Shown: positions 7,005 through 43,763, numbered from the stretch's first letter. The stretch: 64,000 bases of DNA from Candidatus Magasanikiibacteriota bacterium (GCA_041665405.1 JBAYIZ010000003.1:2589-66588), one strand, 5' to 3'. A program made the numbers and translations. Notes: generated by a model from the sequence alone, not told the origin.

Positions 7005-7667
7005 ATGAAACTCAAGGAGGTGCCGGCCGTGGATAGGCCTAGAGAAAAACTATCCAAATATGGTCCAGAAAAATTATCAAATAAGGAGTTGCTAGCGATT
7101 CTACTCGGTTCAGGAGTAAAAGGAACAAATGTAGTACAGCTGTCAAACAAAATACTCAAGAAGTTTAAAACAGAAAAACTTTCACAAGCTTCATTTGAAG
7201 ATTTAAAAAATACTTTTGGTTTGGGTCCAGCCAAAGCATGTTTGTTGGTTGCTTGTTTTGAACTCGGTCGTCGTTTTTTAAAAGACAAAAAACACAACTT
7301 AATATTATCTCCAAAGGATGTTTGGGAAAATCTCAAAGATATTCGCGATCACAAAAAAGAACATTTTGTGGTTTTTTATTTGGACACCAGAAACCAAGAG
7401 ATAAAAAGAGAAATAATATCCGTCGGCACACTCAATGCTAACCTCATACATCCACGCGAAGTATTTGAACCAGCCATCATGCACAGTGCAGCACAGCTAA
7501 TAGTAGCCCACAATCATCCATCGGGAAATCCAGAGCCATCGGAAGAAGATTTAGCCATAACAAAACGACTGGCAGAGGCGGGGAAAATACTTGGGATAGA
7601 TTTATTAGATCATATCATAATAGCCAAAGAAAGCTTTATCAGTTTGAACGACAGAGGCATTTTGTGA
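7005..7667 (+). CDS. radC: RadC-family JAB/MPN-domain protein (UPF0758)
   Basis: JAMM metalloprotease motif HNHPSGNPEPSEED plus the N-terminal helix-hairpin-helix-like region typical of RadC. A perfect palindrome ATCGCTTAtttAAGCGAT follows at ~7688. Confidence 0.85.
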   Translation: MKLKEVPAVDRPREKLSKYGPEKLSNKELLAILLGSGVKGTNVVQLSNKILKKFKTEKLSQASFEDLKNTFGLGPAKACLLVACFELGRRFLKDKKHNLILSPKDVWENLKDIRDHKKEHFVVFYLDTRNQEIKREIISVGTLNANLIHPREVFEPAIMHSAAQLIVAHNHPSGNPEPSEEDLAITKRLAEAGKILGIDLLDHIIIAKESFISLNDRGIL

Positions 7668-7753
7668 TAATATAATCGCTTATTTAAGCGATTATTTTGT
7701 TTTGACGAAAGCAAATAAAGAGAGTAAAATATAGGAACTAAATTTCTTAAACT

Positions 7754-9205
7754 ATGTTTGAACAATCATTCAAAAACATTGATAATATCCTCCATACAGA
7801 TTCTGGTTGTGGAACAGAACTGGATTATGTAGAACAAACCTCTTGGGTTCTTTTTTTGAAATACCTAGATGATTTGGAAGAGACCAAAAGAACTGAATCG
7901 GCACTGGCTGGGAAGAAATACGCCTATATTTTGTCTCCCGAATATCGTTGGGACGCATGGGCGTGTCCAAAAAATAGCGAAGGCAAATTAGACCATAACA
8001 AAGCACTGGATGGTGACGATCTCTGTGGTTTTGTAAACAACAAACTTTTTCCATATCTTAAAAAATTTAAAGCCGAAGAACCAAATACCATTGAATACAA
8101 AATCGGTGAAATTTTTTCTGAATTGAAAAATAAAATCTCTAGCGGATATAAATTGCGAGAAATATTGAACATCGTGGATTTAATGCACTTTCGTTTGTAT
8201 GAAGAAAAACACGAACTTTCACATCTCTACGAAGCCAAAATAAAGAACATGGGCAACGCCGGACGCAATGGTGGCGAATACTACACGCCACGCCCACTCA
8301 TCAAAACAATTGTGAAAGTAGTCGATCCAAAGATTGGAGACACTGTTTATGACGGTGCCTGTGGTAGCGCTGGATTTTTGGTTGAAGCGTATAAATATCT
8401 AACAGAAAATCAATCCAAACTATCATCAAGCCAGATGGCAACCTTGCAAAACAAAACTTTTTACGGCAAAGAAATAAAATCTCTCGCCTATATCATCGGT
8501 ATCATGAATATGATCCTGCATGGTATTGAAGCACCAAATATAAAACACACCAATACACTTGCAGAAAACATCAATGATATCCAAGAAAAAGATCGTTACT
8601 CCGTAATTCTGGCAAATCCGCCTTTTGGCGCTGGTATCGGCCGTGAAATTCAACAAAACTTTCCAATCAAAACTGGTGAGACCGCTTTTCTTTTTCTCCA
8701 GCATTTTATTAAAATTTTAAAAGCTAGAGGCCGAGCAGGTATTGTTATCAAAAATACTTTTCTTTCCAATACGGATAACGCATCGGTTTCATTGCGTAAA
8801 TTACTTTTAGAAAATTGCAATCTACACACAGTATTAGATTTGCCAGGTGGTGCTTTTCAGGGTGCGGGAGTAAAAACGGTAGTGTTATTTTTTGAGAAGG
8901 GTACATCTACAAAAAAAGTTTGGTTTTATCAGCTCAATCTTGAGCGCAATCTTGGAAAAGGCAACCCATTGAACGAAGCAGATTTGGCCGAGTTTGTGGA
9001 ACTACAAAAGACCACGGCGAACAGCGATAATTCATGGAGTGTGGATGTTAAAGATATTGATCAGACTACTTTTGATTTGTCAGTAAAAAACCCAAATAAA
9101 AATAATGAGGTGATTTTAAGAGAGCCAAAAGATATTTTAGTAGAGATGAAGGACTTGGATATAAAAATTCAGAGTAGTGTAATTAGTATAAAAAAACTTC
9201 TTTAA
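7754..9205 (+). CDS. hsdM: type I restriction-modification system DNA methyltransferase subunit M
   Basis: N6-adenine MTase motifs: ILANPPFGAG (motif IV NPPF) and the SAM-binding ...VYDGACGSAGFLVEA.... The N-terminal HsdM_N-like region is present. Gene is followed in the same operon by hsdS and hsdR. Confidence 0.92.
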   Translation: MFEQSFKNIDNILHTDSGCGTELDYVEQTSWVLFLKYLDDLEETKRTESALAGKKYAYILSPEYRWDAWACPKNSEGKLDHNKALDGDDLCGFVNNKLFPYLKKFKAEEPNTIEYKIGEIFSELKNKISSGYKLREILNIVDLMHFRLYEEKHELSHLYEAKIKNMGNAGRNGGEYYTPRPLIKTIVKVVDPKIGDTVYDGACGSAGFLVEAYKYLTENQSKLSSSQMATLQNKTFYGKEIKSLAYIIGIMNMILHGIEAPNIKHTNTLAENINDIQEKDRYSVILANPPFGAGIGREIQQNFPIKTGETAFLFLQHFIKILKARGRAGIVIKNTFLSNTDNASVSLRKLLLENCNLHTVLDLPGGAFQGAGVKTVVLFFEKGTSTKKVWFYQLNLERNLGKGNPLNEADLAEFVELQKTTANSDNSWSVDVKDIDQTTFDLSVKNPNKNNEVILREPKDILVEMKDLDIKIQSSVISIKKLL

Positions 9206-9208
9206 GAT

Positions 9209-10504
9209 ATGGATTTTTCAAAGTTCACTTTTAATAAAAAATACACTCGGTATGATAAGCAATTTGAGTTGTTTTTTGATTTTGATCTTAAGGAAATTAC
9301 CGGACACAATAGAAAAACTTTTGATTACGGACTGAGTTTGCGTTACTTTCTTGAAAATAATCCCGGAAAACAAATTTTTTTAACCTTAACACAAGTATCT
9401 GACTTTTGTGAAGAATCAAATAAGTTAATTATAAACTTAAAGTCATATCAGGATTTTTGTAAGAAAATTAGCCAAAATGGCAAAGATAAAACTCAAGCAT
9501 TTCTTGCTCAAAAGTTGAAACATTACTCGGAAAATGAAAAGAAAGAAATTATTGCTAGTTCAACTGGAGAAGAAATAATAGAAAGGACGAGAGACTTTAC
9601 AGAAGATCAAAAAAAAGAGCTCGTTAAAGCAAATGCTACTGAAACGAATATATTTGAGGCAATAAAGACTCTAAGTGTAGAATCTCAAAGTAAAATATTT
9701 GAATTTTTACGATCTCAAAAAGGTTTAGATGTCTCTGGGAAAATCATTGAAACAACTGAAGAAGTTCTAAATATTTTAAATGGCCTTGAAAATATTGAGC
9801 CTGAAATTCTAAAGACGATTTTAAACAAATTAGATGAAAAAGAAAAAATTAACACTATTCTTGAAACATTGTCCAGGATAGAACTGAAGCATCTATCTGC
9901 CGCTAATAAGCAAAAGATTTATCATGCAGAGCTTAACAATTTAAAGCAACTTTTAGAATTGGAGGAGAATGGAAGTATAGTCGAGACAATAAAAAATTAT
10001 GGAAATTTAAGTTCATATATAGCAGGACAGCCTGAAAAAATATTCCAAAATTGGATTGAAAGAAATTTGTGGGTTTTTGGGATTGAGTATATAAAAAAAC
10101 ACGATGGAAGAAAGGTGGCTTTATTTAGTGAAGGGGATATACTAATGGAGTCAATGGATGGATTTTTAGACTTAATAGAGATTAAAAGACCCAAATACGG
10201 AATTTTTCAATATGACACCAATCACAATAGCTATTATTCATCACCAGATTTATCAAAAGTCATTGGACAGTGCTTGCTTTACTTGCAAAAAATGGATGAT
10301 CAAAAACTTGTTTTAGAAAAAGAGCACAAAGTGAAAATACTACGACCTAGAATAAAAATTATTGCAGGAAGAACAAACGAATTTAAGGACGAGCAATTTG
10401 AAGCTCTACGAATGTTAAATTCTAACCTAAACCACATCCAAATTATATCCTACGATTATCTTTTGAGTTGTGGAAAAAAAATTATTTCTTTATATGAGAA
10501 TTAA
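9209..10504 (+). CDS. hypothetical protein with C-terminal PD-(D/E)xK (RecB-like, Shedu/DUF4263-like) nuclease domain
   Basis: Starts 3 nt after the hsdM stop. The C-terminal ~150 aa carry ...SEGDILMESMDGFLDLIEIKRP... (D...D-hIEIK = D/ExK) followed by GQCLLY (QxxxY), the RecB-family motif set. The N-terminal 270 aa are helical and Lys/Glu-rich. The DUF4263/Shedu assignment is from memory and not verified. Confidence 0.45.
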   Translation: MDFSKFTFNKKYTRYDKQFELFFDFDLKEITGHNRKTFDYGLSLRYFLENNPGKQIFLTLTQVSDFCEESNKLIINLKSYQDFCKKISQNGKDKTQAFLAQKLKHYSENEKKEIIASSTGEEIIERTRDFTEDQKKELVKANATETNIFEAIKTLSVESQSKIFEFLRSQKGLDVSGKIIETTEEVLNILNGLENIEPEILKTILNKLDEKEKINTILETLSRIELKHLSAANKQKIYHAELNNLKQLLELEENGSIVETIKNYGNLSSYIAGQPEKIFQNWIERNLWVFGIEYIKKHDGRKVALFSEGDILMESMDGFLDLIEIKRPKYGIFQYDTNHNSYYSSPDLSKVIGQCLLYLQKMDDQKLVLEKEHKVKILRPRIKIIAGRTNEFKDEQFEALRMLNSNLNHIQIISYDYLLSCGKKIISLYEN

Positions 10505-10536
10505 TTGGCAGATACAATTTTTTAAAAGGAAATTAT

Positions 10537-11403
10537 ATGAGTAGAATTTTTGATTTTAATAAACGTTTTGGAAAAACTGTTGACCCTGAAGAAGTAAAAC
10601 ATGATTTTGTAAATAAAATTACTCATTATCTTATCGAACCTCTGGATGAGAAGGCAGGTTTACGTTATGGAGAGTACAGTAATAGTACTGAAATATTTAA
10701 TTTTGTGGCGATGGAATTTAATCAAAACCCGACAAATATTATATATTTACACAACAGAAATCATTTCTATTCTGATGATATTTACCGTCCATCTTTTAAG
10801 ATTTTTTCTGATGGCGTTTTTGAAAAAACCCTTATATTAGTAGAAATTTTTTATGATTATCTTTCAACGCACAGCATCCCTGGCACGGGTGAAAAGCAGT
10901 GGTCAGAAAATATAAATAAAATTGTCGCGTATGCTCTTAACCAGCCAGTATCGCTTGGCATCTCGTGGCGTGATGGAAAATTTTATCCTGAAGGAGCCGA
11001 AGAATTTGATGAAAAACTTATTTCGGATGTATTAAAATGGCTTGAACAAAAACCAAAAATTCAGGCTTTATACAAAAATGCACTTGATCAGTATTCTCAA
11101 TCATTAAGTGATAATATTAAGCGTAAAGATGTTATGAGTAATGCTTTTCAAGCTGTAGAACAACTTACCCAAGAATATCTGAAAAGCCCCAAACCGTCAT
11201 TTGATAATAATTTTAATTCATTAGTTGATAAACTTGTTATTGATAAAGAATGGAAAAAAATATTTAATTCTTACAAAGAATTAAGTAAAGAATTTGGGCG
11301 ACATGCAGGTAGTGGAGACAGCTTTATTCCTACACAAGAAGATACTGAAGCATTTTTATATTTGTCTGGTTTGATAATGAGATTAATACTTGAAAAAGTA
11401 TGA
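10537..11403 (+). CDS. hypothetical protein (no recognisable domain), embedded in the hsd operon
   Basis: 288-aa ORF with a good RBS (AAAGGA) 7 nt upstream. Its stop overlaps the hsdS start (ATGA), which implies translational coupling. Confidence 0.5.
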   Translation: MSRIFDFNKRFGKTVDPEEVKHDFVNKITHYLIEPLDEKAGLRYGEYSNSTEIFNFVAMEFNQNPTNIIYLHNRNHFYSDDIYRPSFKIFSDGVFEKTLILVEIFYDYLSTHSIPGTGEKQWSENINKIVAYALNQPVSLGISWRDGKFYPEGAEEFDEKLISDVLKWLEQKPKIQALYKNALDQYSQSLSDNIKRKDVMSNAFQAVEQLTQEYLKSPKPSFDNNFNSLVDKLVIDKEWKKIFNSYKELSKEFGRHAGSGDSFIPTQEDTEAFLYLSGLIMRLILEKV

Positions 11404-12620
11404 AAAATAATTGGCCAACAAAAAAACTTGGCGAAGTATGTGAATTTTTGAATGGATTATGGACTGGCAAAGAACCACCTTATATCAAAGTTGGTGTGAT
11501 TAGAAATACTAATTTTACAAAAGATGGGACACTAGACGATTCTAATATTGCTTACCTAAATGTTGAAAAAAAACAATTTGAAAAAAGAAAATTAATTTGC
11601 GGTGATGTCATCCTTGAAAAATCTGGCGGTGGACCAAAGCAACCTGTTGGGCGAGTTATAATATTTAATAAGGACAAAGGCAGTTTTTCATTTAGCAATT
11701 TTACTTCGGTAATAAGAATAAAGGATCCTAAAGAATTGAATTTTAATTTTCTCCATCGGTTTTTATTTTTTTCTTATATTTCAGGCATCACCGAAAAAAT
11801 GCAAAGTCATTCAACGGGAATTAGAAATCTTGATTCGAAATTATATAAAAATATCGATATACCTCTTCCATCACTCCATGAACAACACCACATCGTAAAA
11901 ATTTTAGATGAGGTTTTTGCGAAGGTGGCGAAGGCGAAAGAAGATGTTGAAAAAAATTTACAAAATTCCAAAGCACTTTTTGAATCATATTTACAGAGTG
12001 TTTTTACTAATCCAAGAAAGGATTGGGATGAGAAAAAATTAGGAGAAGTTTGCAATTTTGTAAGAGGACCATTTGGGGGGAGCTTAAGAAAAAGTATTTT
12101 TAAAAAAGAGGGTTACGTAGTTTATGAACAACAACATGCCATATATAATCAATTTTCAAAGGTAAGATATTTTATTGACGAAAATAAATTTAATGAAATG
12201 AAAAGATTTGAATTAAGGTCAGGTGATTTGATTATGAGTTGCTCTGGAACTATGGGTAAAATAGCAATTGCACCAGTGGGCATTAAAAAAGGAATTATTA
12301 ATCAAGCGTTATTAAAACTTAGTCCAAACAAAGATTTGATCAATGTGTTTTTGAAAAACTGGATGGAGAGCGCTGTTTTTCAAAATGATCTTAAAAAATA
12401 CACTAAAGGAGCTGCTATAAAAAATGTAGTATCCGTAAAGATTTTGAAAGGAATTAAAATATACATACCAAAATTGGCGGAACAAAAATTAATAATTTCC
12501 AAACTCGACGCCCTTTCCGCCGAGACCAAAAAACTAGAAGCAATTTATAATCAAAAATTAGCAAATTTAGAAGAATTAAAAAAGTCCGTATTAAAAAAGG
12601 CATTCGCAGGGGAGTTGTAA
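11400..12620 (+). CDS. hsdS: type I restriction-modification system specificity subunit S
   Basis: Two target-recognition-domain halves separated by conserved helical repeats (...LPSLHEQHHIVKILDEVF... and ...IPKLAEQKLIISKLDALS...), the classic HsdS architecture. Confidence 0.88.
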   Translation: MKNNWPTKKLGEVCEFLNGLWTGKEPPYIKVGVIRNTNFTKDGTLDDSNIAYLNVEKKQFEKRKLICGDVILEKSGGGPKQPVGRVIIFNKDKGSFSFSNFTSVIRIKDPKELNFNFLHRFLFFSYISGITEKMQSHSTGIRNLDSKLYKNIDIPLPSLHEQHHIVKILDEVFAKVAKAKEDVEKNLQNSKALFESYLQSVFTNPRKDWDEKKLGEVCNFVRGPFGGSLRKSIFKKEGYVVYEQQHAIYNQFSKVRYFIDENKFNEMKRFELRSGDLIMSCSGTMGKIAIAPVGIKKGIINQALLKLSPNKDLINVFLKNWMESAVFQNDLKKYTKGAAIKNVVSVKILKGIKIYIPKLAEQKLIISKLDALSAETKKLEAIYNQKLANLEELKKSVLKKAFAGEL

Positions 12621-12648
12621 TAAACAGCATATTTGATATAATACGACT

Positions 12649-13668
12649 ATGAAGTTTACTCGCACAAAAAAGGTGTTATTTACGAACAATAAAGGCGGAG
12701 TTGGCAAAACCACGCTGGCTTTTAATTGTGCCATGTCCTTTGCCAAACAAGGGTATAAAACTGTATTGGTTGATCTTGATCCTCAATGCAATCTTTCCCG
12801 ATTATCTTTAGGCGACAATCGATATGAAAAGACACTATTTTCATCACAGGAAAAAGATATTTATGATGTGTTGAAAGGCGTGATAGAGGGTGGGTCAGAT
12901 ATTGATTTAGGTGTGCCGTTTATTCCTGTATCCAACAGCAACAATAATCTTTTTTTAATGAAAGGTAGTGTTAATCTTTCGCTGTATGAAAATATATTAG
13001 TTACGGCCTACGGACAAGCCGCCGCTGGCCAGCAACTTGGCTATTTTCAAACTAGTGCGATTGATAGGTTCCTTCGAGAAAGAGGATTAAATGACGAGGT
13101 GGATATTTTTGTAATAGATACATCTCCTAGCTTGTCGCTACTCAATCAAATTATTTTCCTTGGTTCAGATTATTTTGTTGTTCCTATGATGCCCGATGCT
13201 TTTAGCGTGCAAGGTATTGAAAATCTTGGTAGCATATTTGAAAAATGGAAACAAAATTGGAAAGTAACCGGCAAAGCTCTTTCTGGTAATACAGAAAGTA
13301 AATTTGTGCTTTCAGGTGATGGTCTTTTTATTGGGTATATTGTGAATTCATATAATGTATATGGCAAACAGCCAATAAAAGATCACCGCCATTGGATTGA
13401 AGAAATTCCGGCTAAAGTTAAAAAATATCTTTCAGAAAAACATGGACGAAATGGGCTGGTTGAAAAAAGTTGGAAAAATCCGCTGGCTGAAATTCAGGAT
13501 TATGGTAGAATTCCTGCAAAGTGTCAAGAAATTGGGGTAGCGATATTTGATCTTGACCCAGCGTTGATTGATGAAATTCATCTTGGAACTATAGAAAACA
13601 TTGAAAAGTCAAAAGAGGAATTTGGAATATTGACGCAAAATATTTTAAAAATATTAATTGATTATTAA
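12649..13668 (+). CDS. ParA/MinD-family P-loop ATPase (deviant Walker A)
   Basis: KGGVGKTT deviant Walker A, DLDPQCN (A' motif), hhhhDTSPS Walker B. 339 aa with a ~90-aa C-terminal extension. Located between hsdS and hsdR. Confidence 0.75.
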   Translation: MKFTRTKKVLFTNNKGGVGKTTLAFNCAMSFAKQGYKTVLVDLDPQCNLSRLSLGDNRYEKTLFSSQEKDIYDVLKGVIEGGSDIDLGVPFIPVSNSNNNLFLMKGSVNLSLYENILVTAYGQAAAGQQLGYFQTSAIDRFLRERGLNDEVDIFVIDTSPSLSLLNQIIFLGSDYFVVPMMPDAFSVQGIENLGSIFEKWKQNWKVTGKALSGNTESKFVLSGDGLFIGYIVNSYNVYGKQPIKDHRHWIEEIPAKVKKYLSEKHGRNGLVEKSWKNPLAEIQDYGRIPAKCQEIGVAIFDLDPALIDEIHLGTIENIEKSKEEFGILTQNILKILIDY

Positions 13669-13715
13669 AAATAGACCGTTAGCCCTTAAGTTTTTATGGA
13701 GTTAGCGGTTTTTTA

Positions 13716-16070
13716 ATGTATATGCTTAACGAATCAGAAACACGAGCCGAATATATTGACCCGAAACTTAAAGCGAGTGGTTGGGGTGAAGTGGAGGGAT
13801 CCAAAGTCCTGCGTGAATTTCGTATTACCGACGGTAAAATTCAAGCTGGAGGAATGCGCGGTAAACCGGAAATTGCGGATTATATTTTGGTATATAAAAA
13901 TCGCAAAATTGGGGTGATTGAAGCTAAGGCGGAAAATTTAGCGGCGTCTGAGGGTGTAGGACAAGCCAAAGCGTACGCGCAAAAATTACAGATTGATTTT
14001 ACCTATGCCACCAACGGCAAAGATATTTATGAAATTTCCATGAAAAACGGACAAGAAGGAAATGTTGTAGATTTTCCAACTCCGGATGAATTGTGGGACA
14101 AAACTTTTTCTGACCAACCAGCCACAAACGAAGAATGGAAAGAAAAATTTGATGCGGTTTCGTCTGAAGGTGAAAAAGGTAAACGATATTATCAAGAGCT
14201 GGCTATCAACAATGCACTGGATGCGGTGGCACAAGAAAAGACACGAATACTAATAACTATGGCCACGGGGACAGGTAAGACTGCGGTGGCGGCTCAAATC
14301 GCTTGGAAACTATTTCAGACCCGCTGGAATTTAAAGAGAGATGGATCTCGCAGACCACGAATATTGTTTTTGGCGGATAGAAATATTTTGGCTGACCAAG
14401 CATTTGGAAATGATTTTTCAATTTTTCCAACCGATGCTATGGTGCGTATCAATCCTTTGGATATTCGAAAAAAGGGTGGTGTGCCAATGAGTGGTAGTGT
14501 TTATTTTACAATTTTTCAAACTTTTATGAGTGGAGCGGAAGGTGCTCCTTATTTTGGAGAATATCCACCAGATTTTTTTGATTTTATTATCATTGATGAG
14601 TGTCATCGTGGCGGTGCTAATGATGAAGGTAATTGGCGTGGTATTTTGGAATATTTTTCTCCTGCAGTCCAACTTGGTTTGACTGCGACACCAAAGCGAC
14701 AAGATAATGTGGATACATATAAATATTTTGGTGAACCAGTTTATGTTTATTCACTCAAAGAGGGTGTGAATGATGGCTTTTTGACTCCATTTAAAGTTAA
14801 ACGAGTCAAAACTACTCTTGATGATTATATTTACACTTCAGATGATCAAATTGTTGAAGGTGAAGTGGAAGAAGGAAAAATATATACTGAACCGGATTTT
14901 AATAAAATAATTGAGATCAAGGCCAGAGAGGCAAAAAGAGTGAGAGTGGTATTAGATGAAATAAATCAAAATGAAAAGACAATAATATTTTGCGCGACCC
15001 AGGACCACGCGGCGGCCGTGCGTGATTTGGTAAATCAAATGAAAGATAATAAGGATCCGAATTATTGTGTGAGAGTGACTGCCAATGACGGATTTCGTGG
15101 TGAACAATTTTTGCGTGAATTTCAAGATAATGAAAAAACTATACCGACTATTTTGACCACTTCACAAAAACTTTCTACTGGCGTAGACGCGCGCAATATT
15201 CGCAATATTGTTTTGATGAGACCGGTAAATTCAATGATTGAATTTAAACAAATTATCGGTCGTGGTACTCGACTTTTTGATGGTAAAGAATATTTTACGA
15301 TTTATGATTTTGTGGATGCGTACCATCACTTTGCCGATCCTGAATGGGATGGGGAACCAGCAAGTGAAACAACAGAAGATCAACCAACGGTTAAATATGA
15401 AACCACGAACAAGGATTTTGGCGGATCTATTTTGCGAGAAAAACCGACTGAAAAATATAAAAAATTAAAAATAAAATTACGTGATGGAAAAGAACGAGAA
15501 ATACAGCATATGATTTCAACTTCTTTTTGGAGTGCTGACGGCAAACCAGTTTCTGTTCAAGAATTTATGGACAATATGTTTGGTACCATGCCAGAATTTT
15601 TTAAGAGCGAAGAAGAACTCCGGAAAATTTGGTCAAACCCAACCACACGAAAAGTATTTTTAGAAAAAATTGCTGAGGCTGGTTATGGAAAAGACGAACT
15701 GGAAACATTACAAAAATTGATTGACGCTGAACAGAGTGATTTGTTTGATGTGCTTGCCTATGTATCCTTTGCTAGCAAGCCAATTAGCAGAACGGAGAGG
15801 GTTGACACTACTAAAAAAATTATTTTAAAAGGATTGGATGAAAAACAAACAGAATTTTTGCAATTTGTTTTAAATAAATATATTGATAATGGAGTAGAAG
15901 AGCTAGACGAAGAAAAATTGCCACAATTATTGAATTTAAAATATTACGCTATTGCAAATGCTGAACAGGAACTAGGCGATGTGTTTAAGATTAGAAATTT
16001 ATTTATTGATTTTCAAAAAGGTCTCTACAGTAATAAAATAAAAAATAATATTACTATTCAAAAAAATTAA
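13716..16070 (+). CDS. hsdR: type I restriction enzyme endonuclease/helicase subunit R (EcoEI-like, short form)
   Basis: N-terminal HSDR_N-like MLNESETRAEYIDPKLKASGWG. SF2 helicase motifs MATGTGKT (I), DECHRG (II), LGLTATP (III). The C-terminal region resembles the EcoEI_R_C domain. Confidence 0.88.
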   Translation: MYMLNESETRAEYIDPKLKASGWGEVEGSKVLREFRITDGKIQAGGMRGKPEIADYILVYKNRKIGVIEAKAENLAASEGVGQAKAYAQKLQIDFTYATNGKDIYEISMKNGQEGNVVDFPTPDELWDKTFSDQPATNEEWKEKFDAVSSEGEKGKRYYQELAINNALDAVAQEKTRILITMATGTGKTAVAAQIAWKLFQTRWNLKRDGSRRPRILFLADRNILADQAFGNDFSIFPTDAMVRINPLDIRKKGGVPMSGSVYFTIFQTFMSGAEGAPYFGEYPPDFFDFIIIDECHRGGANDEGNWRGILEYFSPAVQLGLTATPKRQDNVDTYKYFGEPVYVYSLKEGVNDGFLTPFKVKRVKTTLDDYIYTSDDQIVEGEVEEGKIYTEPDFNKIIEIKAREAKRVRVVLDEINQNEKTIIFCATQDHAAAVRDLVNQMKDNKDPNYCVRVTANDGFRGEQFLREFQDNEKTIPTILTTSQKLSTGVDARNIRNIVLMRPVNSMIEFKQIIGRGTRLFDGKEYFTIYDFVDAYHHFADPEWDGEPASETTEDQPTVKYETTNKDFGGSILREKPTEKYKKLKIKLRDGKEREIQHMISTSFWSADGKPVSVQEFMDNMFGTMPEFFKSEEELRKIWSNPTTRKVFLEKIAEAGYGKDELETLQKLIDAEQSDLFDVLAYVSFASKPISRTERVDTTKKIILKGLDEKQTEFLQFVLNKYIDNGVEELDEEKLPQLLNLKYYAIANAEQELGDVFKIRNLFIDFQKGLYSNKIKNNITIQKN

Positions 16071-16074
16071 TAAT

Positions 16075-16980
16075 ATGCCATTATTTAAAAATACCGATTC
16101 GAAACTATCCATAATAAAAGAAAGGCCGATTGATTTAGAGAGGGATATTCAACATCTCACTGAAATTAATTTAGAAAATGTTTTTAACCTAGAATTTGTT
16201 AGTTCTGAATTTTCTTTACACAATTTCAGACTTGACACACTAGCTTTTGACAAGGAGACAGGTTCTTTTGTAATAATAGAATTTAAAAGAGATAGAAGCT
16301 TCAGTGTTATTGATCAAGGGTATGCCTATTTATCTTTAATGTTAAACAACAAGTCAGATTTTATTTTGGAATACAATGAAAAAACAAAAAAGAATTTAAG
16401 ACGTGATGATGTTGACTGGTCACAGTCCAGAGTAATGTTTGTAGCAAATTCATTTACTTCATATCAAATGAATGCAATAAATTTTAAAGATCTACCCATT
16501 GAATTGTGGGAAGTTAAAGTTTATGAAAACAATGTAATATTATTTAATCAACTCTTATCACAAGACTCTACTGAATCAATAAAAACTATCACAAAAAACA
16601 AAGCTATCGATTCAGTGAGTAACGAAGTAAAAGTCTATACATTAGAAGACCATTTGAATGTGAACGATAAAATAAAAGAATTATTTTATGCGCTAAGAGA
16701 AAAAATACTAGCGCTTAGTGATACAATCGAAGAAAGACCTAAAAAAATGTACGTTGCATACAGAGTTAGAAATACATTTGCGTATGTTCATATACAACAA
16801 TCGCAAATCAAGATCCACTTAACTATTGATATGAAAAAACTGGTTGATCCAAAGGGTTTTGTTAGGGATGTAAATAATATTGGCCATTTTGGTGGTGGTG
16901 ATTTAGAGGTGATTTTAGACAAAATGGAAAATCTAAATTATGTTTTTGATTTAATTGAACAATCTTATAAAGCATTATAA
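16075..16980 (+). CDS. predicted PD-(D/E)xK (RecB-like) nuclease-domain protein
   Basis: Starts 4 nt after the hsdR stop. The N-terminus carries ...LDTLAFDKETGSFVIIEFKRD... (D..D..hIEFK) and DQGYAYL (QxxxY). The C-terminal ~130 aa are an unassigned domain. Confidence 0.4.
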   Translation: MPLFKNTDSKLSIIKERPIDLERDIQHLTEINLENVFNLEFVSSEFSLHNFRLDTLAFDKETGSFVIIEFKRDRSFSVIDQGYAYLSLMLNNKSDFILEYNEKTKKNLRRDDVDWSQSRVMFVANSFTSYQMNAINFKDLPIELWEVKVYENNVILFNQLLSQDSTESIKTITKNKAIDSVSNEVKVYTLEDHLNVNDKIKELFYALREKILALSDTIEERPKKMYVAYRVRNTFAYVHIQQSQIKIHLTIDMKKLVDPKGFVRDVNNIGHFGGGDLEVILDKMENLNYVFDLIEQSYKAL

Positions 16981-17851: not shown

Positions 17852-18526
17852 ATGAATAAAAACTACCAAACCGCCATAAAACAACTACGATTAGAAAAAA
17901 ATATATCGCAATCTGACATTGCGCAAAAGATGGGTATTTCGCGCACCTCATATATTTCTTTTGAACAAGGTAAGCGCGACATCAGTCTATCCGAAGCGGG
18001 TGTTTTGGCCGATATATTTGGCATCTCCTTGGAAGATCTCAAAAATGGCGTAACACCGAATAATGAAAAATACAAACAAATGATTTTGGCTTTTTTGCGT
18101 TTGGATACCAAGATCACAAAGACCAAACTTGCTAAATTATTGTATTTTGCCGATTTTGGGTGGTTTTATTCTCACCTTGAAAGTATGAGCGGCATGTCAT
18201 ACCGTAAAATGGCGTATGGTCCAGTTTCAGATGCTTATTTTAGGATAGTTGACGATTTGTTTGACAACGGTCAAATTGATATTGAGCAAACCAAAGATGG
18301 GGCAATGTTAGTTTCTCAGACGCGCAGTGGCGCAAAAATTGATTTATCTGCTCTCAATACTGAAGAAAAAAAGTTAATATCCACTATTGAAAAAAAATGG
18401 AAAGGCAAAAAAACTTCTGAGATAGTTGATTTTACCCACAAGCAATTTCCATATTTATATGCTCAAGACAACGAAATTGTGTCATATGGTTTGTTTACCC
18501 AAGAAAATCCTGACGAAATTTTCTAA
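17852..18526 (+). CDS. XRE-family HTH fused to a Panacea (DUF4065/SocA-like) domain protein; putative antitoxin/regulator
   Basis: N-terminal HTH (QSDIAQKMGISRTSYISFEQGKRDISLSEAGVLADIFGISLEDL). The C-terminal KTKLAKLLYFADFGWFYSHLESMSGMSYRKMAYGPV matches the DUF4065 core (KLqKLLYfad...GPV). A palindromic operator lies immediately upstream. Confidence 0.7.
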   Translation: MNKNYQTAIKQLRLEKNISQSDIAQKMGISRTSYISFEQGKRDISLSEAGVLADIFGISLEDLKNGVTPNNEKYKQMILAFLRLDTKITKTKLAKLLYFADFGWFYSHLESMSGMSYRKMAYGPVSDAYFRIVDDLFDNGQIDIEQTKDGAMLVSQTRSGAKIDLSALNTEEKKLISTIEKKWKGKKTSEIVDFTHKQFPYLYAQDNEIVSYGLFTQENPDEIF

Positions 18527-18584
18527 TTATGATATACAAAAATGATAAGATATATTTTATATAATAATTTTAATTTAATTATAT

Positions 18585-19538
18585 ATGGAGGGGAAAAACA
18601 ATCAAATTATCATATACAATACTAAGGACGGCAAGACCAAGATTGAAGTTAAGCTAAATGACGAAACTGTATGGCTCACCCAGGCGCAAATGGCTGATTT
18701 GTTTCAGAAGAGCCAATCTACAATAAATGAACATATCCAAAATGTTTATGATGAGGGTGAATTGGAAAAAGAGCTAACCTTGCGTAAATTCGGAAATTCC
18801 GAAAATAGCATAGCTAAGCCAACCAACATTTATAATCTGGATGTGATCATCTCCGTTGGCTATCGTGTTAATTCCCTTCGAGGCACCCAATTCCGCATTT
18901 GGGCAACACAAAAATTGAAAGAATACATTATAAAAGGTTTTGTATTGGACGATGAGCGATTAGAAAGCGGACAGGTAGCCAAACCATACTTTCAGGAATT
19001 AGAAGAACGCATTCGCAAGATTCGCACTTCTGAAGCAAATTTCTATCAAAAGGTAAAAGATGTTTTTGCTTTAAGCGCGGATTACAATCCGAAGGCAGAT
19101 TATGCTCAGAAATTTTTCGCAGTAGTACAAAATAAATTTCACTTTGCTATTACCGGATTAACCGCAGCCGAAATTGTTAGCAGTCGCATAGACAGTGCCA
19201 AAGAAAATTTAGGGCTGACAAATTGGAAGGGTGAAATTATTACTCGTGATCAAGCGGAAGTCGCAAAAAATTATTTACAAGAACTAGAATTAAAAAGATT
19301 AAATTTACTGGTGGAACAATTTCTTTCTTTTGCTGAATTACAAAGTGTGGAACAGCGCGTCATGTATATGAATGATTGGATTATGAAACTGGATGGATTT
19401 TTGGTTTTGAATGATAAAGAAATTTTGGAAAATTCTGGCAGTGTGTCGCGCCATGACATGGAACAAAAGGTGCGCGAGGAATTAAAGAGATATAATCAGA
19501 AGGTTTTGGAAAATAAAAAACCCAATCAATTAGATTAG
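18585..19538 (+). CDS. RhuM-family protein (Virulence_RhuM, PF13310-like)
   Basis: N-terminus IIIYNTKDGKTKIEVKLNDETVWLTQAQMADLFQKSQSTINEHIQNVYDEGEL is the highly conserved RhuM-family opening. It lies 58 bp downstream of the Panacea gene on the same strand. Confidence 0.7.
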   Translation: MEGKNNQIIIYNTKDGKTKIEVKLNDETVWLTQAQMADLFQKSQSTINEHIQNVYDEGELEKELTLRKFGNSENSIAKPTNIYNLDVIISVGYRVNSLRGTQFRIWATQKLKEYIIKGFVLDDERLESGQVAKPYFQELEERIRKIRTSEANFYQKVKDVFALSADYNPKADYAQKFFAVVQNKFHFAITGLTAAEIVSSRIDSAKENLGLTNWKGEIITRDQAEVAKNYLQELELKRLNLLVEQFLSFAELQSVEQRVMYMNDWIMKLDGFLVLNDKEILENSGSVSRHDMEQKVREELKRYNQKVLENKKPNQLD

Positions 19539-19821
19539 GCATTTTATTGAAGTAGTGTCTTAGAAAATGGTTATCTGCGGCTTAAGTTCCAGGTACCCTG
19601 GAGGAACACCACGGCACTCTCTAAGTTATTATTACTAACTTCACTTATAATATAGACAATAAAGTGATCATTGTCAATATTTATCCACAGACTATGTCAA
19701 CTAACCGGAATTTCCGGATAACTGAATTAACTAAAATTTTACCTTAAAATATAGCTTGTTATATTCCATAATTATAAGAATATTTTGGCTAATATATAAC
19801 TAATAAAGCCACTCTAACAAT

Positions 19822-19860
19822 TAGTATACTCATGAGGTATACTAATTACAAGTATACTAA
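19822..19860 (+). promoter_or_regulatory. three direct copies of (A/G)GTATACTAATTA, each containing the GTATAC palindrome, immediately upstream of the DUF2779 gene
   Basis: ttAGTATACTcatgagGTATACTAATTAcaaGTATACTAATTatg read directly. TAGTATACTA is a perfect 10-bp palindrome. Confidence 0.55.
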
Positions 19861-19862
19861 TT

Positions 19863-21347
19863 ATGCACATCACCAAAACCGACTACCTCGAATACACCTT
19901 CTGCAAAAAGAACCTCTGGCTCAAAAAACACAAACCAGAGCTTTTTGATGGTGTCGAATTATCGGAATTTGAAAAGAAAATAATCGAAGAGGGGAACATG
20001 GCCGATGAATCAGCCCGCCATTTGTTTCCTGGTGGTGTGTTGGTAGATAGTTTTGGAGAGGATGCCGTGCATGACACCGCCCAATACCTGGAGAAAAAAA
20101 CAGCGGTGATATTTCAAGCGACCTTTGCGCAAGATGTTTTTTATATTCGCGCGGATATTTTGGTTTATGATCAATCCCAAGATGGCTATGAGCTGTATGA
20201 GGTGAAGGCCAGCAATGATGTCAAAAGAAAAGAGCCACATCATTATATCAACGACCTAGCTTTTCAAAAAAGTGTGATTGAAAAAAGTGGTTTGAAAATT
20301 ATTAAAACTGGCGTGATTCATTTGAACAGTGAATACCAAAGAGCGGGGGAAATTGATTATGAAAAATTATTTGTGATAGTGGATCTCAGTGATGAAGTGT
20401 TGGCCTCGCAAGAAAAAGTGCAAGCCCAGATGGAGGATATTAAAAAATATTTAAACATGCCGGAAGAAAAAGGGTGTGAATGTTTGTATCGCGGAAGAAA
20501 TGCTCAATGTACTACCTTTGCTTATTCCAACCCAGAGGTGCCAGAATATTCGGTGCATGATATCAATCGGATTGGGGCGAGTAAAAAAATACTTAATGAT
20601 TGGATAGATAGAGGGATATATGCGATTGAAGATATAGACAATCCACAGGTGCTCACTGGGGCCAAGAAGGCGCAATATGATGCGTGCTCGCTAGGCAAAC
20701 CGATGATTGATGAGGTGGCGATAAAAGAGGCGCTGGACAAATTGGTTTGGCCTTTGTATTTTTTTGATTATGAAGGATTTGTAAGTGCGATTCCGATGTT
20801 TGATGGTTTTGGGGCGTATGAACAAATTCCTTTTCAATATTCTCTGCATATTATGCAAGCGGATGGGAGTATAGAACATAGGGAATTTTTGATTACCGAT
20901 CCCAAAGGAGATCTCACCCGACCGCTGGTGGAACGGATGAAACAGGATATTGATCCGCGCGGGACGGTGATCGCGTGGTATAGCACTTATGAAAAACAAC
21001 GCAATTTGAAATTGGCACAGTTGCATCCGGACTATGCGAAATTTTTGGAGGAAATAAATGAGGGGATGTTTGATCTGATGACTATTTTTTCGGAAAATCT
21101 TTATGTGGATTCGGCTTTCAAGGGGAGCGCGAGTATCAAAAGGGTGTTGCCGGTGATTGTGCCGGAGCTAAGTTATAAAAATTTAAATATTTCCAAAGGG
21201 GATCAGGCGAGTGAGCGGTGGGAGCGGATGATTGGCAGTGATACGCCGGCGGAGGAGAAGAGACAGATTGAGAAGGATTTGTTGGAGTATTGTAAGATGG
21301 ATACTTGGGCGATGGTGAGGATATGGGAGAGGTTGAGGAAAATATAA
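19863..21347 (+). CDS. DUF2779-family protein with Cas4/RecB-like PD-(D/E)xK nuclease N-terminal domain
   Basis: N-terminal ITKTDYLEYTFCKKNLWLKKHKPELF matches the DUF2779 opening (lSKS.f..g.qC.k.lWl). ...ADILVYDQSQDGYELYEVK... carries a D...ELYEVK (ExK) motif. Three GTATACT repeats lie upstream. Confidence 0.55.
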   Translation: MHITKTDYLEYTFCKKNLWLKKHKPELFDGVELSEFEKKIIEEGNMADESARHLFPGGVLVDSFGEDAVHDTAQYLEKKTAVIFQATFAQDVFYIRADILVYDQSQDGYELYEVKASNDVKRKEPHHYINDLAFQKSVIEKSGLKIIKTGVIHLNSEYQRAGEIDYEKLFVIVDLSDEVLASQEKVQAQMEDIKKYLNMPEEKGCECLYRGRNAQCTTFAYSNPEVPEYSVHDINRIGASKKILNDWIDRGIYAIEDIDNPQVLTGAKKAQYDACSLGKPMIDEVAIKEALDKLVWPLYFFDYEGFVSAIPMFDGFGAYEQIPFQYSLHIMQADGSIEHREFLITDPKGDLTRPLVERMKQDIDPRGTVIAWYSTYEKQRNLKLAQLHPDYAKFLEEINEGMFDLMTIFSENLYVDSAFKGSASIKRVLPVIVPELSYKNLNISKGDQASERWERMIGSDTPAEEKRQIEKDLLEYCKMDTWAMVRIWERLRKI

Positions 21348-40743: not shown

Positions 40744-41715
40744 ATGCAATATTTTCATTCCAACAAAAATTTTAACCAATACAAACCACACCAATCTTTT
40801 TGGCAGAAATTAAGATCTAAACGCCAAAAGAAACAGGCGGCGAGTAATTTTACCCAATCTACCTTAAAAAATCCCTATAAGAAAGAAGCACCTATTTCAA
40901 AAAACAAAACTAAGCTAGTTTTGGTATTTTTCTTTGTTCTTATTATTAGTTGGCTTGTCTTAATTTTGACACTGCCATATTTTAAGATATGTAAAATTAT
41001 CGTGATTGGTAATAAGATTACCAAGGCAGTTGAAGTGGAGAACTATGTTCGACAGAATAATTTTTCAATTAATAATTATTTCTTGTTTCCAGACAAATCT
41101 ACCGCAGATAAGATTAAAGAGGTGTTTTTGTATGAGAACACACAGATAAAAAAGATTTTTCCAGATACTATTGAGATAACCGTGACCGAAAAACCAGCCA
41201 GTGTAATTTATGATGATGGTGCTAACTACTATCTATTAGATGCAGATGGCAAGATTATCAAACAACTGATTGAATTTGCTAATTTACCTATTGTTATACC
41301 AATTTCTACATCCACAAGCTCTACAACGCCAAATAACGACCTTGTTGGCGCTACTACCACTATAAAAGTAACAACTAATGTTTACAAACAAATTCAGGGT
41401 GCTTATGGAAATTTTCCGATTATTTTGAATGACAAATTTTATTCAGAAAAAAATCTAATTTCAACAAGGATTATTACTACAGCCAACGAATGGTCAAAAC
41501 GTCTAAGAGAGCAAGGAATAGGGGAGGTACAGTATTTCAAGACTGGGGATACTGATTTCAACCTAAAAGTGTATTTAAAACAACCTTGGCATATACTGAT
41601 CAATACCGAATTGGATTCACAGATTCAAATGCAAAATTTAAAAACAATTTTATCCAACAACAAACCGACAGAGTATATCGATTTGCGATTTGGTGAACGT
41701 GTGTACTGGAAATAA
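40744..41715 (+). CDS. FtsQ/DivIB-like cell-division protein (tentative; single TM plus POTRA-like region)
   Basis: Basic N-terminus, one TM helix (LVLVFFFVLIISWLVLILTL), then ...ICKIIVIGNKITKAVEVENYV... resembling a POTRA domain. Confidence 0.35.
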   Translation: MQYFHSNKNFNQYKPHQSFWQKLRSKRQKKQAASNFTQSTLKNPYKKEAPISKNKTKLVLVFFFVLIISWLVLILTLPYFKICKIIVIGNKITKAVEVENYVRQNNFSINNYFLFPDKSTADKIKEVFLYENTQIKKIFPDTIEITVTEKPASVIYDDGANYYLLDADGKIIKQLIEFANLPIVIPISTSTSSTTPNNDLVGATTTIKVTTNVYKQIQGAYGNFPIILNDKFYSEKNLISTRIITTANEWSKRLREQGIGEVQYFKTGDTDFNLKVYLKQPWHILINTELDSQIQMQNLKTILSNNKPTEYIDLRFGERVYWK

Positions 41716-41870
41716 ATTTCAAATGAACTTCGATAGAGGAGTGGTGTAAAAACCATGTGGATAAGTAGTCTTTACTATTTATTAGCTTTGTTATAGTATT
41801 GAGTATAATAACTCTTACACTCATAACTATATAAGCCTTTTGGGCTTAAATATGATATAATGAATACCAT

Positions 41871-42824
41871 ATGACTATAAACACCATCTCTCTACCTTAT
41901 CTTGATGATTTTATTTTAAATCTCAAAGCAAATAATTTCTCCGAAGAAACTGCTTATAATTATGAACGTGATTTAAAAACTTTTGAATCATTTTTATCTA
42001 ATGATATTAAAAAACCATTTGAACAGATAAACAAAACGGATATTTTGCGTTTTAAAGCATATCTAAGTTCATCAGATCGTAAAACCGCTGAAGACCACAA
42101 GCCAGAAAAGAAACTGAATAGTTATTCGATAAACCGAATACTCTCTGCCCTACGCTCATATTTGAAGTTTATGGAAGAAATGGACCACACTCCACCTGTG
42201 TCCACTAGCGCCATAAAACTATTAAAAAACGAAAAAAAACATGCTCGAGTACCAGAATTTGAGGTATTGATAAAACTAATTGAATCTCCTACCGTTTATG
42301 AAAAAGATATTCAAATAGCATTAAGAAATCGAGCTATGCTGGAGACACTGTTTGCAACTGGCATGCGTATTTCCGAATTATTATCATTAAAAGTTGAACA
42401 AATTGACCAAACAGGCAAAATATATGTGATGGGTAAAGGAAAAAAACAACGTTTTGTATATCTCACTCCCCGTGCATTACAACATTTAAAAAATTATCTT
42501 GCCAAACGCGCATGCGTTTCTGATATGTTGTTTGTCCCCTATCGTGGAAAAAATAATAATGAAAAAAACAAAAAACTATCAGCAAATTATTTACAATATA
42601 AAATAAAACAATATAGACAATATTTGGATATCAATCTACCTATTAGTGCCCACACCTTACGCCACGGTTTTGCCACATTTTTGGCCGAAAAAGGTGCTAA
42701 TCCGGCCGCAATTCAAATTCTATTAGGACACGAATCCCTAGACACAACCACCAGATATGTACATGCTTCAGACCGATACGCAGAAAAAACTCACCACGAT
42801 TTTCATCCCCTATTCGATAAATAA
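41871..42824 (+). CDS. xerC: tyrosine site-specific recombinase (XerC/XerD-like)
   Basis: Catalytic region ...HTLRHGFATFLAEKGANPAAIQILLGHESLDTTTRYVH (R..H.R.Y box) and an N-terminal SAM-like core-binding domain. Followed by a terminator hairpin at 42833-42853. Confidence 0.85.
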   Translation: MTINTISLPYLDDFILNLKANNFSEETAYNYERDLKTFESFLSNDIKKPFEQINKTDILRFKAYLSSSDRKTAEDHKPEKKLNSYSINRILSALRSYLKFMEEMDHTPPVSTSAIKLLKNEKKHARVPEFEVLIKLIESPTVYEKDIQIALRNRAMLETLFATGMRISELLSLKVEQIDQTGKIYVMGKGKKQRFVYLTPRALQHLKNYLAKRACVSDMLFVPYRGKNNNEKNKKLSANYLQYKIKQYRQYLDINLPISAHTLRHGFATFLAEKGANPAAIQILLGHESLDTTTRYVHASDRYAEKTHHDFHPLFDK

Positions 42825-42832
42825 AACAAAAA

Positions 42833-42853
42833 AACCACCGCAAGGTGGTTTTA
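42833..42853. terminator. bidirectional terminator between the convergent xer and PRTase genes
   Basis: AAACCACCgcaaGGTGGTTTT. Confidence 0.65.
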
Positions 42854-42869
42854 AAAATTATTATTATAT

Positions 42870-43763
42870 TTATGTCTTTGATTTCAAACTTAAAAATGCA
42901 CGTCTGACTTCGTCAAAATGCGCCTTTAATTTTTGTTTTAATAATTCCCCTTCTGAATTATTAGAGATTGAACTCAAAGTACTGTCTTCATATTTATCCA
43001 AATCACTCATAGCATTATCATCGAGCTCTTCATACTGACCAATTTTATTTAATATATGAATTAGAGTATCAACCTCTCCATTGTGCTCGATATTTTTTCG
43101 TGCGACAATCGCGTTATCATACTTCTCAACAACATCTTTTTTAGGATGATATTGTAAAACAAAACCAAGGCCAAGAGGTTCAGGTTTGATACTACTTCTG
43201 CGTACATAAGGATGTAAAACTTCTTTACTTCTAGAAATTTCTGAAGCCATATCACTATTAATGTAGCCTAAAATTACTTTTCCAATATTAGGAAATGCAC
43301 TGGTCAACTGTTCCTGTGCATTTTTTAAAGTATTACCTGTAGAGATTAATTCATCAACTACTAAAACTACCTTACCATCAAAAACATCTTTGGATAAATC
43401 GTATGTTATTTTTGTTCGTCGTACTCTCTCAGACATCTCTTCGGTTTTAAGCTTACGATGACTTTTGCCAGCTATAAACCTTATTTCTGGCGGTTTAATA
43501 CCGGGATAAACCCTTTTCCATAATGATTTTATAAATAAAGCCAAGGGCCTTGAACTGATATCTAATATCACCAATGTATCAACCTTATTTTCATAAATAC
43601 TAACTACAAAATCAATCCCCTGTTCAATATAATTTTTCCTATTTTCCGGTAAAAACAATCCATCATCATTATAATTTTCAAAATATGATGAATAATCTTG
43701 TTTATTTTTCATCAACAACTCAGGAAATTCGTCTGATTTAAAATAGCTTGGCTCACGTCTCAT
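42870..43763 (-). CDS. phosphoribosyltransferase-domain protein
   Basis: Type I PRTase PRPP-binding motif VVLVVDELISTGNT in the central region. N- and C-terminal extensions of unknown function. Confidence 0.5.
   Translation of the reverse strand: MRREPSYFKSDEFPELLMKNKQDYSSYFENYNDDGLFLPENRKNYIEQGIDFVVSIYENKVDTLVILDISSRPLALFIKSLWKRVYPGIKPPEIRFIAGKSHRKLKTEEMSERVRRTKITYDLSKDVFDGKVVLVVDELISTGNTLKNAQEQLTSAFPNIGKVILGYINSDMASEISRSKEVLHPYVRRSSIKPEPLGLGFVLQYHPKKDVVEKYDNAIVARKNIEHNGEVDTLIHILNKIGQYEELDDNAMSDLDKYEDSTLSSISNNSEGELLKQKLKAHFDEVRRAFLSLKSKT

Follow-up and report, generated by a model that had tools for sequence, protein, structure and literature searches.

Does the run of seven genes at positions 7754-16980 represent a new multi-gene defence system, or a known type of restriction-modification (R-M) operon in which other genes are embedded? 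The DNA analysed here (the window, 64,000 nucleotides (nt) in full; GCA_041665405.1 JBAYIZ010000003.1:2589-66588) comes from the chromosome of Candidatus Magasanikbacteria, a lineage of the Candidate Phyla Radiation (CPR). The listing of open reading frames (ORFs) gives seven genes, all on the + strand: hsdM, sduA, an uncharacterised gene (X), hsdS, a gene for a ParA/MinD-type ATPase (the ParA-like gene), hsdR, and a gene of the PDC-S18 family. The gaps between them, in this order, are 3, 32, -4, 28, 47, and 4 nt; the stop of X and the start of hsdS overlap by 4 nt. This agrees exactly with the same-strand run, the coordinates and the gaps of -4 to 47 nt given in an earlier reading of the same DNA made without database searches (the sequence-only reading), which regarded the seven genes as a new architecture. 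Sequence, structural, and neighbourhood analyses suggest that the locus is probably a type IB R-M operon hosting three independent cargo genes (sduA, X, and PDC-S18), together with an autonomous ParA-like gene in the slot between hsdS and hsdR.

All three type I subunits named in the sequence-only reading were recovered. HsdM, the methyltransferase subunit (7754..9205, + strand, 483 aa), matched Pfam N6_Mtase (4.7e-64) and HsdM_N, as well as the PADLOC model MTase_I over its full length (5e-157). HsdS, the specificity subunit (11400..12620, + strand, 406 aa), has two target-recognition domains. It matched Pfam Methylase_S in two stretches (7.7e-33) and a PADLOC model at full length; its C-terminus (KKAFAGEL directly before the stop) is typical of its family. 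HsdR, the restriction/translocase subunit (13716..16070, + strand, 784 aa), scored 822 bits against the NCBIfam model NF046051 (EcoAI/FtnUII equivalog, cut-off 550) over residues 4-772. It consists of an N-terminal PD-(D/E)xK nuclease (D55 and E69-x-K71), a superfamily 2 (SF2) motor with the helicase motifs TGTGKT184, DECH294, and QIIGRGTR512, and an EcoEI_R_C tail. These are the features of a type IB (EcoAI) HsdR, and the HsdM with N6_Mtase and HsdM_N and the two-domain HsdS expected of this type stand alongside it. Because of the equivalog score, the kept motifs, and the standard HsdM and HsdS domains, the core looks like an intact type IB (EcoAI-family) hsdM-hsdS-hsdR operon in a CPR chromosome.

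In type I enzymes, HsdM2-HsdS methylates a bipartite target, and R2M2S translocates and cuts unmodified DNA at a distance. The type I families are defined by subunit complementation. The operon resembles EcoAI in the HsdR that passes the equivalog cut-off over its full length and in the standard HsdM and HsdS domains. It differs in the hsdM-hsdS-hsdR order with interrupting genes, and in that its assignment to type IB was made from sequence alone. Membership in the methylation-associated defence system (MADS) was rejected: the MADS equivalogs gave scores far under their cut-offs (MAD2, 83 against 720; MAD5, 59 against 400).

The gene between hsdM and hsdS (gene 2; 9209..10504, + strand, 431 aa) had been read as a protein with a C-terminal PD-(D/E)xK/QxxxY nuclease domain. 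This reading was borne out by a match to Pfam SduA_C (DUF4263; 1e-18, 68.5 bits against a cut-off of 27), with the catalytic residues D317/D321, E324-x-K326, and Q354..Y358 in place. The PADLOC model SduA was matched at 2.8e-40. Gene 2 is thus a predicted Shedu (SduA) nuclease. Shedu is a single-gene system. Like other Shedu proteins, the product has a C-terminal SduA_C PD-(D/E)xK nuclease with its catalytic residues and a variable N-terminus, and it lacks a conserved partner gene. Unlike them, it is embedded in a CPR hsd operon, and its N-terminal 270 residues match no model. The related loci compared below (L-numbers) are sampled genome loci, drawn by short exact peptide patterns, so that their counts are not a prevalence estimate; lineage names are those in the deposited metagenome-assembled genome (MAG) records. 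No conserved SduA partner was found here, and the neighbour X is present without SduA in L090 and L092-L099. A two-gene system of Shedu and X was rejected, as no SduA was detected in any related locus by tblastn and X was seen without it. Shedu and PDC-S18 were also considered as paralogues and rejected, since they have no mutual similarity. The GC content of sduA is 0.297 against 0.36 in the window.

The last gene (gene 7; 16075..16980, + strand, 301 aa; GC 0.288) had been described as a RecB-like nuclease 4 nt after hsdR. Its position stands, and a PD-(D/E)xK-like motif can be read by eye in its N-terminal part (D54, E69-x-K71, and Q81..Y85). However, hidden Markov models (HMMs) give only Pfam DUF5655 (1.5e-14, C-terminal half only) and the PADLOC family PDC-S18 (PDLC04945; 1.2e-118, residues 1-298, end to end). 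Gene 7 is thus classified as a candidate defence protein of the PDC-S18 family, with a nuclease label that rests on the motif read by eye. The phage-defence candidates (PDC) of PADLOC come from genes embedded in type I R-M, BREX, and DISARM operons, according to Payne et al. (2024, bioRxiv 10.1101/2024.01.29.577857). Since these candidates are defined by embedding, PDC-S18 is a member of a catalogued candidate family. The gene shares with that family the full-length HMM match and the place at the edge of a type I operon, and no structural difference was seen. A literature search found nothing specific on PDC-S18.

Gene X (gene 3; 10537..11403, + strand) encodes a 288-aa protein that the sequence-only reading described as having no recognisable domain. 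A protein with 100% identity to it is encoded in a Candidatus Magasanikbacteria MAG. No Pfam family was matched, in line with that description, but a structure model with a predicted local distance difference test (pLDDT) score of 87 showed a C-terminal four-helix, up-down HEPN fold. The N-terminal helical domain, about 190 residues long, is specific to the family. The family alignment contains the motif E-F-G-[R/K]-H-x-G, in which H256 is invariant and R/K255 lies directly before it; no conserved Arg was found in it 4-6 residues before H256, where the canonical HEPN motif Rx4-6H would have one. The Abi_C (PF14355) and DUF4145 models stayed below the Pfam gathering threshold for the X family. 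Faint hits were recorded to DUF4145 in 3 of 38 members (E 0.19-0.25) and to Abi_C in P0053. Neither X nor PDC-S18 matched any PDB sequence, and a fold search with X in a viral structure library gave no match. From the modelled fold we infer that X is probably an abortive-infection-type RNase; what the model itself shows is the fold. X differs from the HEPN abortive-infection and toxin proteins (AbiV, the HEPN domain of AbiA, HEPN/MNT toxins, RnlA/LsoA, and Csm6) in the missing canonical Rx4-6H, in the missing Pfam match, in its own N-terminal domain, and in having no adjoining antitoxin-like gene.

The X family is large. A profile search against 1.84 billion representatives identified 820 clusters (counted at 50% identity) at E<=1e-3, mostly full-length and 260-290 aa long. 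Near hsd genes, X was found directly after hsdM (L092), before hsdS and the ParA-like gene (L093, in the order X-hsdS-ParA), and after AAA_21 and RloB (L090). Outside hsd operons it occurs in variable regions (L094 and L095), among housekeeping genes (L096), by a serine recombinase and a type III R-M system (L098), and after a TIR gene with a large methyltransferase-helicase pair (L114). X is an uncharacterised, solitary cargo gene of defence or mobile-element regions.

Two of these X loci have further features. L094 (561-3813) and L095 (7618-10870) carry an identical X protein (P0015). In both, the genes before it encode the same two proteins of 599 aa and 191 aa, neither of which has a Pfam hit, and a Hypoth_Ymh gene lies nearby. 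The spacing of the 599-aa, 191-aa, and X genes is tight, and the three could make up one module in this lineage. The hsd operon of L090 (13071-17221) contains X and lacks the ParA-like gene. Between its hsdS and hsdR lie two small unknown ORFs and a duplicate of the hsdS 3' end, a fragment 94% identical to that of the window. The hsdR of L090 is apparently split into two ORFs, so this operon may be decaying.

No SduA or PDC-S18 was found in any of the related loci, at least 90 in number (searched by tblastn for SduA). The same slots of related CPR hsd operons are occupied by other genes, including DUF4145, Fic, a 680-aa HATPase_c_3 protein, AAA_14/DUF4143, HEPN, AAA_21 with RloB, AAA_13, SLFN_AlbA_2, DUF3800, AAA_15/21, and transposases. 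SduA, X, and PDC-S18 have no conserved linkage to one another. The locus has the published architecture of embedded defence genes, and is not a new seven-part system. The interleaving of four foreign genes in a complete, apparently functional type I operon, as first described, stands. The novelty claimed for the architecture does not, as gene 2 is assigned to Shedu and gene 7 to PDC-S18, both in PADLOC-DB, and such embedding has been published. HMM hits to well-known accessory proteins of type I R-M systems had been named as grounds for refuting the proposal, and the hits of genes 2 and 7 are of this kind. X matches no Pfam family, and the ParA-like protein matches ParA-type Pfam domains. The idea that the extra genes form one linked set also failed in the gene-neighbourhood comparison, in which no related locus contained SduA or PDC-S18 and X often occurred without hsd genes.

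The locus is comparable to R-M operons with embedded genes, such as those of Payne et al., TgvAB, PrrC, and the Campylobacter rlo genes. TgvAB of Vibrio cholerae VPI-2 is reported as an experimentally validated embedded system (PMC11411939). Here, too, the nested genes share the strand of the hsd genes, related operons differ in their cargo, and the cargo would act independently of restriction, as proposed here. The operon differs in its location on a CPR chromosome, in its three cargo genes in two slots, and in an ultra-conserved ParA-like gene that occupies the hsdS-hsdR slot and has a promoter of its own; the published accounts, in the text available, name no such gene. The operon would thus double as a small defence island, in which the hsdM/hsdS/hsdR order leaves variable slots. 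Shedu, X, and PDC-S18 are probably three independent single-gene modules rather than subunits of one machine, most likely read from the hsdM promoter and providing separate, mechanistically distinct layers.

The ParA-like gene (12649..13668, + strand, 339 aa) behaves differently from the cargo. Its identification as a ParA/MinD-type ATPase was confirmed by matches to Pfam AAA_31 (2.2e-29, 103 bits against 27) and CbiA (59 bits against 25). Its sequence contains a DPQCN motif and, at residue 15, the deviant Walker A motif KGGVGKT. The ParA_partition equivalog NF041546 was not reached (61.8 against 180 bits), the PADLOC models gave no match beyond the P-loop, and IMG/VR contained no close relatives. 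No ParB-type neighbour was found in the window or in a census of 80 CPR loci. The structure model of the C-terminal half is poor (pLDDT <50 for most of residues 164-318), owing to a shallow alignment. The protein is 81-94% identical across CPR phyla, and the best 120 database matches (82-92% identity) come from many CPR phyla. Synonymous divergence (dS) is saturated: even for the closest orthologue, 94% identical in amino acids, it amounts to 1.46. The dN/dS ratio is about 0.03. The GC content (0.358) is host-like, and the GC of third codon positions (GC3) tracks the GC of the flanks (r=0.72). Because dS is saturated and GC3 follows the flanks, the high identity points to strong constraint over a long residence; recent horizontal spread was rejected as its source for the same reasons.

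The 70 nt upstream of the ParA-like gene (12579-12648 in the window) were compared with those of L005 and L009-L088. Of the 78 loci, 63 have a TANNNT hexamer that starts 11-13 nt upstream of the ATG (47 at -12), against a background of 2.8 per position, and 45 of these 63 -10 hexamers carry a TGn extension. In the window, the promoter is predicted as TTGTAA-16-TGaTATAAT (12615..12642, + strand, from a consensus scan and family conservation). Its -10 ends 6 nt before the ATG, and its -35, TTGTAA, is made up of the last Leu codon and the stop codon of hsdS. The fixed position of the -10 suggests a family-conserved promoter and a leaderless transcript. Other genes of the window, such as that at 17852, also have a -10-like hexamer near the ATG and no Shine-Dalgarno sequence.

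At the upstream edge of the operon, a terminator-like hairpin follows RadC (7672..7695, + strand; a consensus match with a 10-pair stem and then a T run), and a promoter-like site, TTGACG-17-TAAAAT, lies 23 nt 5' of hsdM (7702..7730, + strand), where the consensus match is weak evidence. Promoter-like sites are no more frequent in the region than shuffled sequence would predict, so the sites at 7702-7730 and 12615-12642 count only through their positions. No intrinsic terminator was predicted by consensus scan in any intergenic gap of the seven-gene run. The sequence-only reading had held co-transcription of all seven genes to be almost certain. This has to be qualified, in that the ParA-like gene has its own family-conserved promoter, which probably also drives hsdR. 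GC contents are 0.29-0.31 in sduA, X, hsdS, and PDC-S18, and 0.36-0.37 in hsdM, the ParA-like gene, hsdR, and the whole window. On the chromosome, the operon is preceded by ATP synthase beta and epsilon genes and RadC, and followed by MsrB and a pyrimidine-dimer glycosylase. A recently integrated mobile element was rejected as an account of the operon: there is no tRNA and no integrase, and the flanking repeats are only AT-rich chance matches.

In most of the 80 CPR loci, the ParA-like gene lies among unrelated housekeeping genes. The neighbours that recur are limited to HsdS on its upstream side, HsdR on its downstream side, and Fic, the last in three loci. Intact hsdM...hsdS-ParA-hsdR operons of the same family were found in five of the 80 loci (L030, L033, L038, L039, and L051), which belong to differently named lineages. 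In 7-8 more loci (L017, L043, L059, L081-L083, L086, and probably L088), hsd relics lie by the ParA-like gene, either as a piece of the hsdS 3' end, about 30 codons long, immediately before it or as an hsdR with an internal deletion immediately after it. The ParA-like protein falls into three sequence subfamilies, each of which includes embedded or relic loci, and hsdR starts 3-47 nt after the ParA-like gene in most embedded loci. A PADLOC census of the neighbours against distant controls agrees with the hsd signal, as family-level counts only. The hsdS-ParA-hsdR arrangement is far too specific for chance. The earlier remark that a ParA-type ATPase inside an hsd operon is unusual holds, as no description was found in the literature; a search of it for ParA-like ATPases connected with defence or with CPR R-M systems gave no specific result.

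The association is not obligatory on either side. The five closest HsdR homologues that could be placed (80-84% identity) all sit in operons without a ParA-like gene, and on this ground the ATPase was rejected as an obligatory subunit of this hsd family. The HsdM and HsdR of the window are nearer to those of ParA-less operons (81-90%; HsdM 82-90%) than to those of other ParA-containing ones (68-77%). About 85% of the CPR loci have no hsd gene or other effector near the ParA-like gene, and one quarter of the downstream genes are on the opposite strand. Since close operons lack the ParA-like gene and many ParA-like loci lack hsd genes, neither the R-M system nor the ATPase seems to need the other, and the nesting is scattered on both trees. 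The ParA-like gene is most likely an ancient, strongly constrained, autonomous gene, which has become nested in the hsdS-hsdR slot repeatedly, or has been there for a very long time, in CPR bacteria, and which persists where the hsd genes have decayed.

Two side observations concern the same neighbourhoods. RhuM genes or fragments occur close to the ParA-like gene in 7 related loci. Immediately 5' of hsdM, a RadC-like JAB-domain gene is found both in the window (7005-7667) and in L030 (4688-5341), with 60% identity between the two, and is a second recurrent neighbour of ParA-containing operons.

Distant homologues of the ParA-like protein outside CPR share 26-31% identity over about 86-99% of the length. 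The plasmid homologues align nearly full-length (30% identity over residues 6-302, 1e-38). In Burkholderia glumae the plasmid homologue overlaps a HEPN gene, in Vibrio ponticus it overlaps a SIR2 gene, and in Xanthomonas it comes after an NYN gene; elsewhere it stands alone near abortive-infection (Abi) genes. The plasmids on which these homologues lie (loci L107, L110, and L112) have partition genes of their own, parAB or parFG. Kinship between X and the HEPN partner in B. glumae was considered and rejected, as the two are unrelated. In phages, the homologue (gp22 in ST160) lies directly downstream of the repressor in the P22-like phages ST160 (L116, Salmonella) and SE1; it takes the same position in a lambdoid prophage that 109 of 5426 E. 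coli genomes contain (L118, the IHE3034 prophage, where the gene is ECOK1_RS02690). It also lies at the att end of Pf1 (L117). The genes rexAB and sieB are likewise located in the region downstream of a prophage repressor. The same is true of BstA, and the cI-N region is described as a hotspot where mosaic diversity is concentrated (PMC8585504). The CPR proteins resemble these orphan ParA/MinD ATPases, which carry a DPQCN motif and are about 340-360 aa long (PDB 3pg5 and the prophage and plasmid proteins), in the deviant Walker A motif, the near-full-length similarity, the lack of a ParB partner, and the association with conflict loci. They differ in their chromosomal location, in their 81-94% identity between phyla, and in standing mostly alone among housekeeping genes. 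Judged by sequence and position, the repressor-linked and SIR2/HEPN/NYN-linked homologues may form an unrecognised family of conflict-associated ATPases.

How the ParA-like gene came to lie in the operon, and what it does there, can be explained in several ways. A type IB operon with independent cargo and an autonomous resident ATPase is the probable explanation, but several points weigh against it. An independent resident leaves the precise hsdS-hsdR placement, in several phyla and in all three subfamilies, unexplained. The neighbourhood of the ParA-like gene is fluid even among orthologues of 91-94% identity, and its subfamilies cut across taxonomy. The placement of the distant homologues in defence hotspots fits a conflict role better than a housekeeping one. 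X lacks the canonical Rx4-6H motif, so its RNase activity is only putative. The ATPase might instead be a conflict or defence component, a nucleotide switch with a sensing or regulating role, working with HsdR, encoded directly after it, or with X as effector, so that the CPR operon would be an R-M system with a built-in ATPase regulator. This is doubtful, though it would account for hsdS and hsdR as the only recurrent CPR neighbours, for the 3-47 nt between the ParA-like gene and hsdR in most embedded loci, for the plasmid homologues that overlap HEPN and SIR2 genes or follow NYN genes despite separate partition genes, and for the phage and prophage homologues placed directly downstream of a repressor, as BstA is (PMC8585504). 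It fits poorly with the roughly 85% of CPR loci that have no nearby hsd gene or other effector and the quarter of downstream genes on the opposite strand, with the closest hsd operons, which lack the ATPase, and with the PADLOC models, none of which matches beyond the P-loop. Defence genes do not typically show a dN/dS of about 0.03 or 81-94% identity between phyla, the HEPN partner in B. glumae is unrelated to X, and homology at 26-31% identity does not fix function.

Alternatively, the R-M operon might persist because it surrounds an indispensable, highly expressed ParA-like gene: a single deletion of the operon would be lethal, hsdR would gain an internal promoter, and the nesting would be selected as an addiction-like stabiliser. 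The extreme purifying selection on the ParA-like gene, its retention where hsd genes are reduced to relics, and the conserved, strong-looking promoter directed towards hsdR with no terminator between are consistent with such anchoring. The same relics, however, show that hsd genes are lost piecemeal, so the anchoring would be weak; most close hsd operons manage without the ParA-like gene, whose essentiality is only assumed, and no mechanism is known that would repeatedly place a resident gene between hsdS and hsdR. Such anchoring is therefore considered quite improbable. It is extremely unlikely that the products of the seven genes are all integrated into a single, new multi-protein defence system. 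The single strand, the tight spacing, and the lack of predicted internal terminators would suit such a system, but the gene set is repeated at no other locus, and this lack of co-occurrence contradicts it. SduA and PDC-S18 are absent from every one of the related loci, at least 90 in number, X stands alone elsewhere, Shedu is known as a single-gene system, and the composition of the cargo is unlike that of the core. On a broader view, the 340-aa DPQCN ATPases might be an unrecognised family of conflict-system components, which in prophages and plasmids would occupy defence hotspots or sites expressed during lysogeny and would pair with SIR2, HEPN, or NYN effectors, and whose ultra-conserved CPR branch is tied to type IB restriction either as a switch for HsdR or as an anchor that resists loss; this proposal is rather unlikely.

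CPR genomes are often said to be poor in defence systems. The independent-cargo explanation extends the embedding of defence genes in type I R-M operons to these small genomes. X represents a sizeable HEPN-fold family without a Pfam model, which recurs in defence contexts. Few proteins seen in these lineages are as conserved as the ParA-like ATPase, whose only recurrent genomic partner is a restriction enzyme. If a functional link between the two were true, a ParA/MinD-type switch would join the defence toolkit, or selfish R-M operons would have a new route to stabilise themselves.

Beyond two repair genes downstream of the operon, the defence-type region resumes (17852-21347). It contains a protein with a helix-turn-helix (HTH) and a SocA/Panacea antitoxin-like domain (17852-18526), RhuM (18585-19538), and a DUF2779 protein (19863-21347). 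An Rfam DUF3800-V RNA motif (RF02964; 19548-19643, - strand; 70 bits against a gathering threshold of 37) lies between the RhuM and DUF2779 genes. No DUF3800 gene is present in the window; in L100, a DUF3800 gene is embedded between hsdM and hsdS. Farther downstream, the cumulative GC skew peaks at about 41000-43000, with a change of sign near 42 kb, and the genes switch from the + to the - strand. This point may be a replication-related strand switch.

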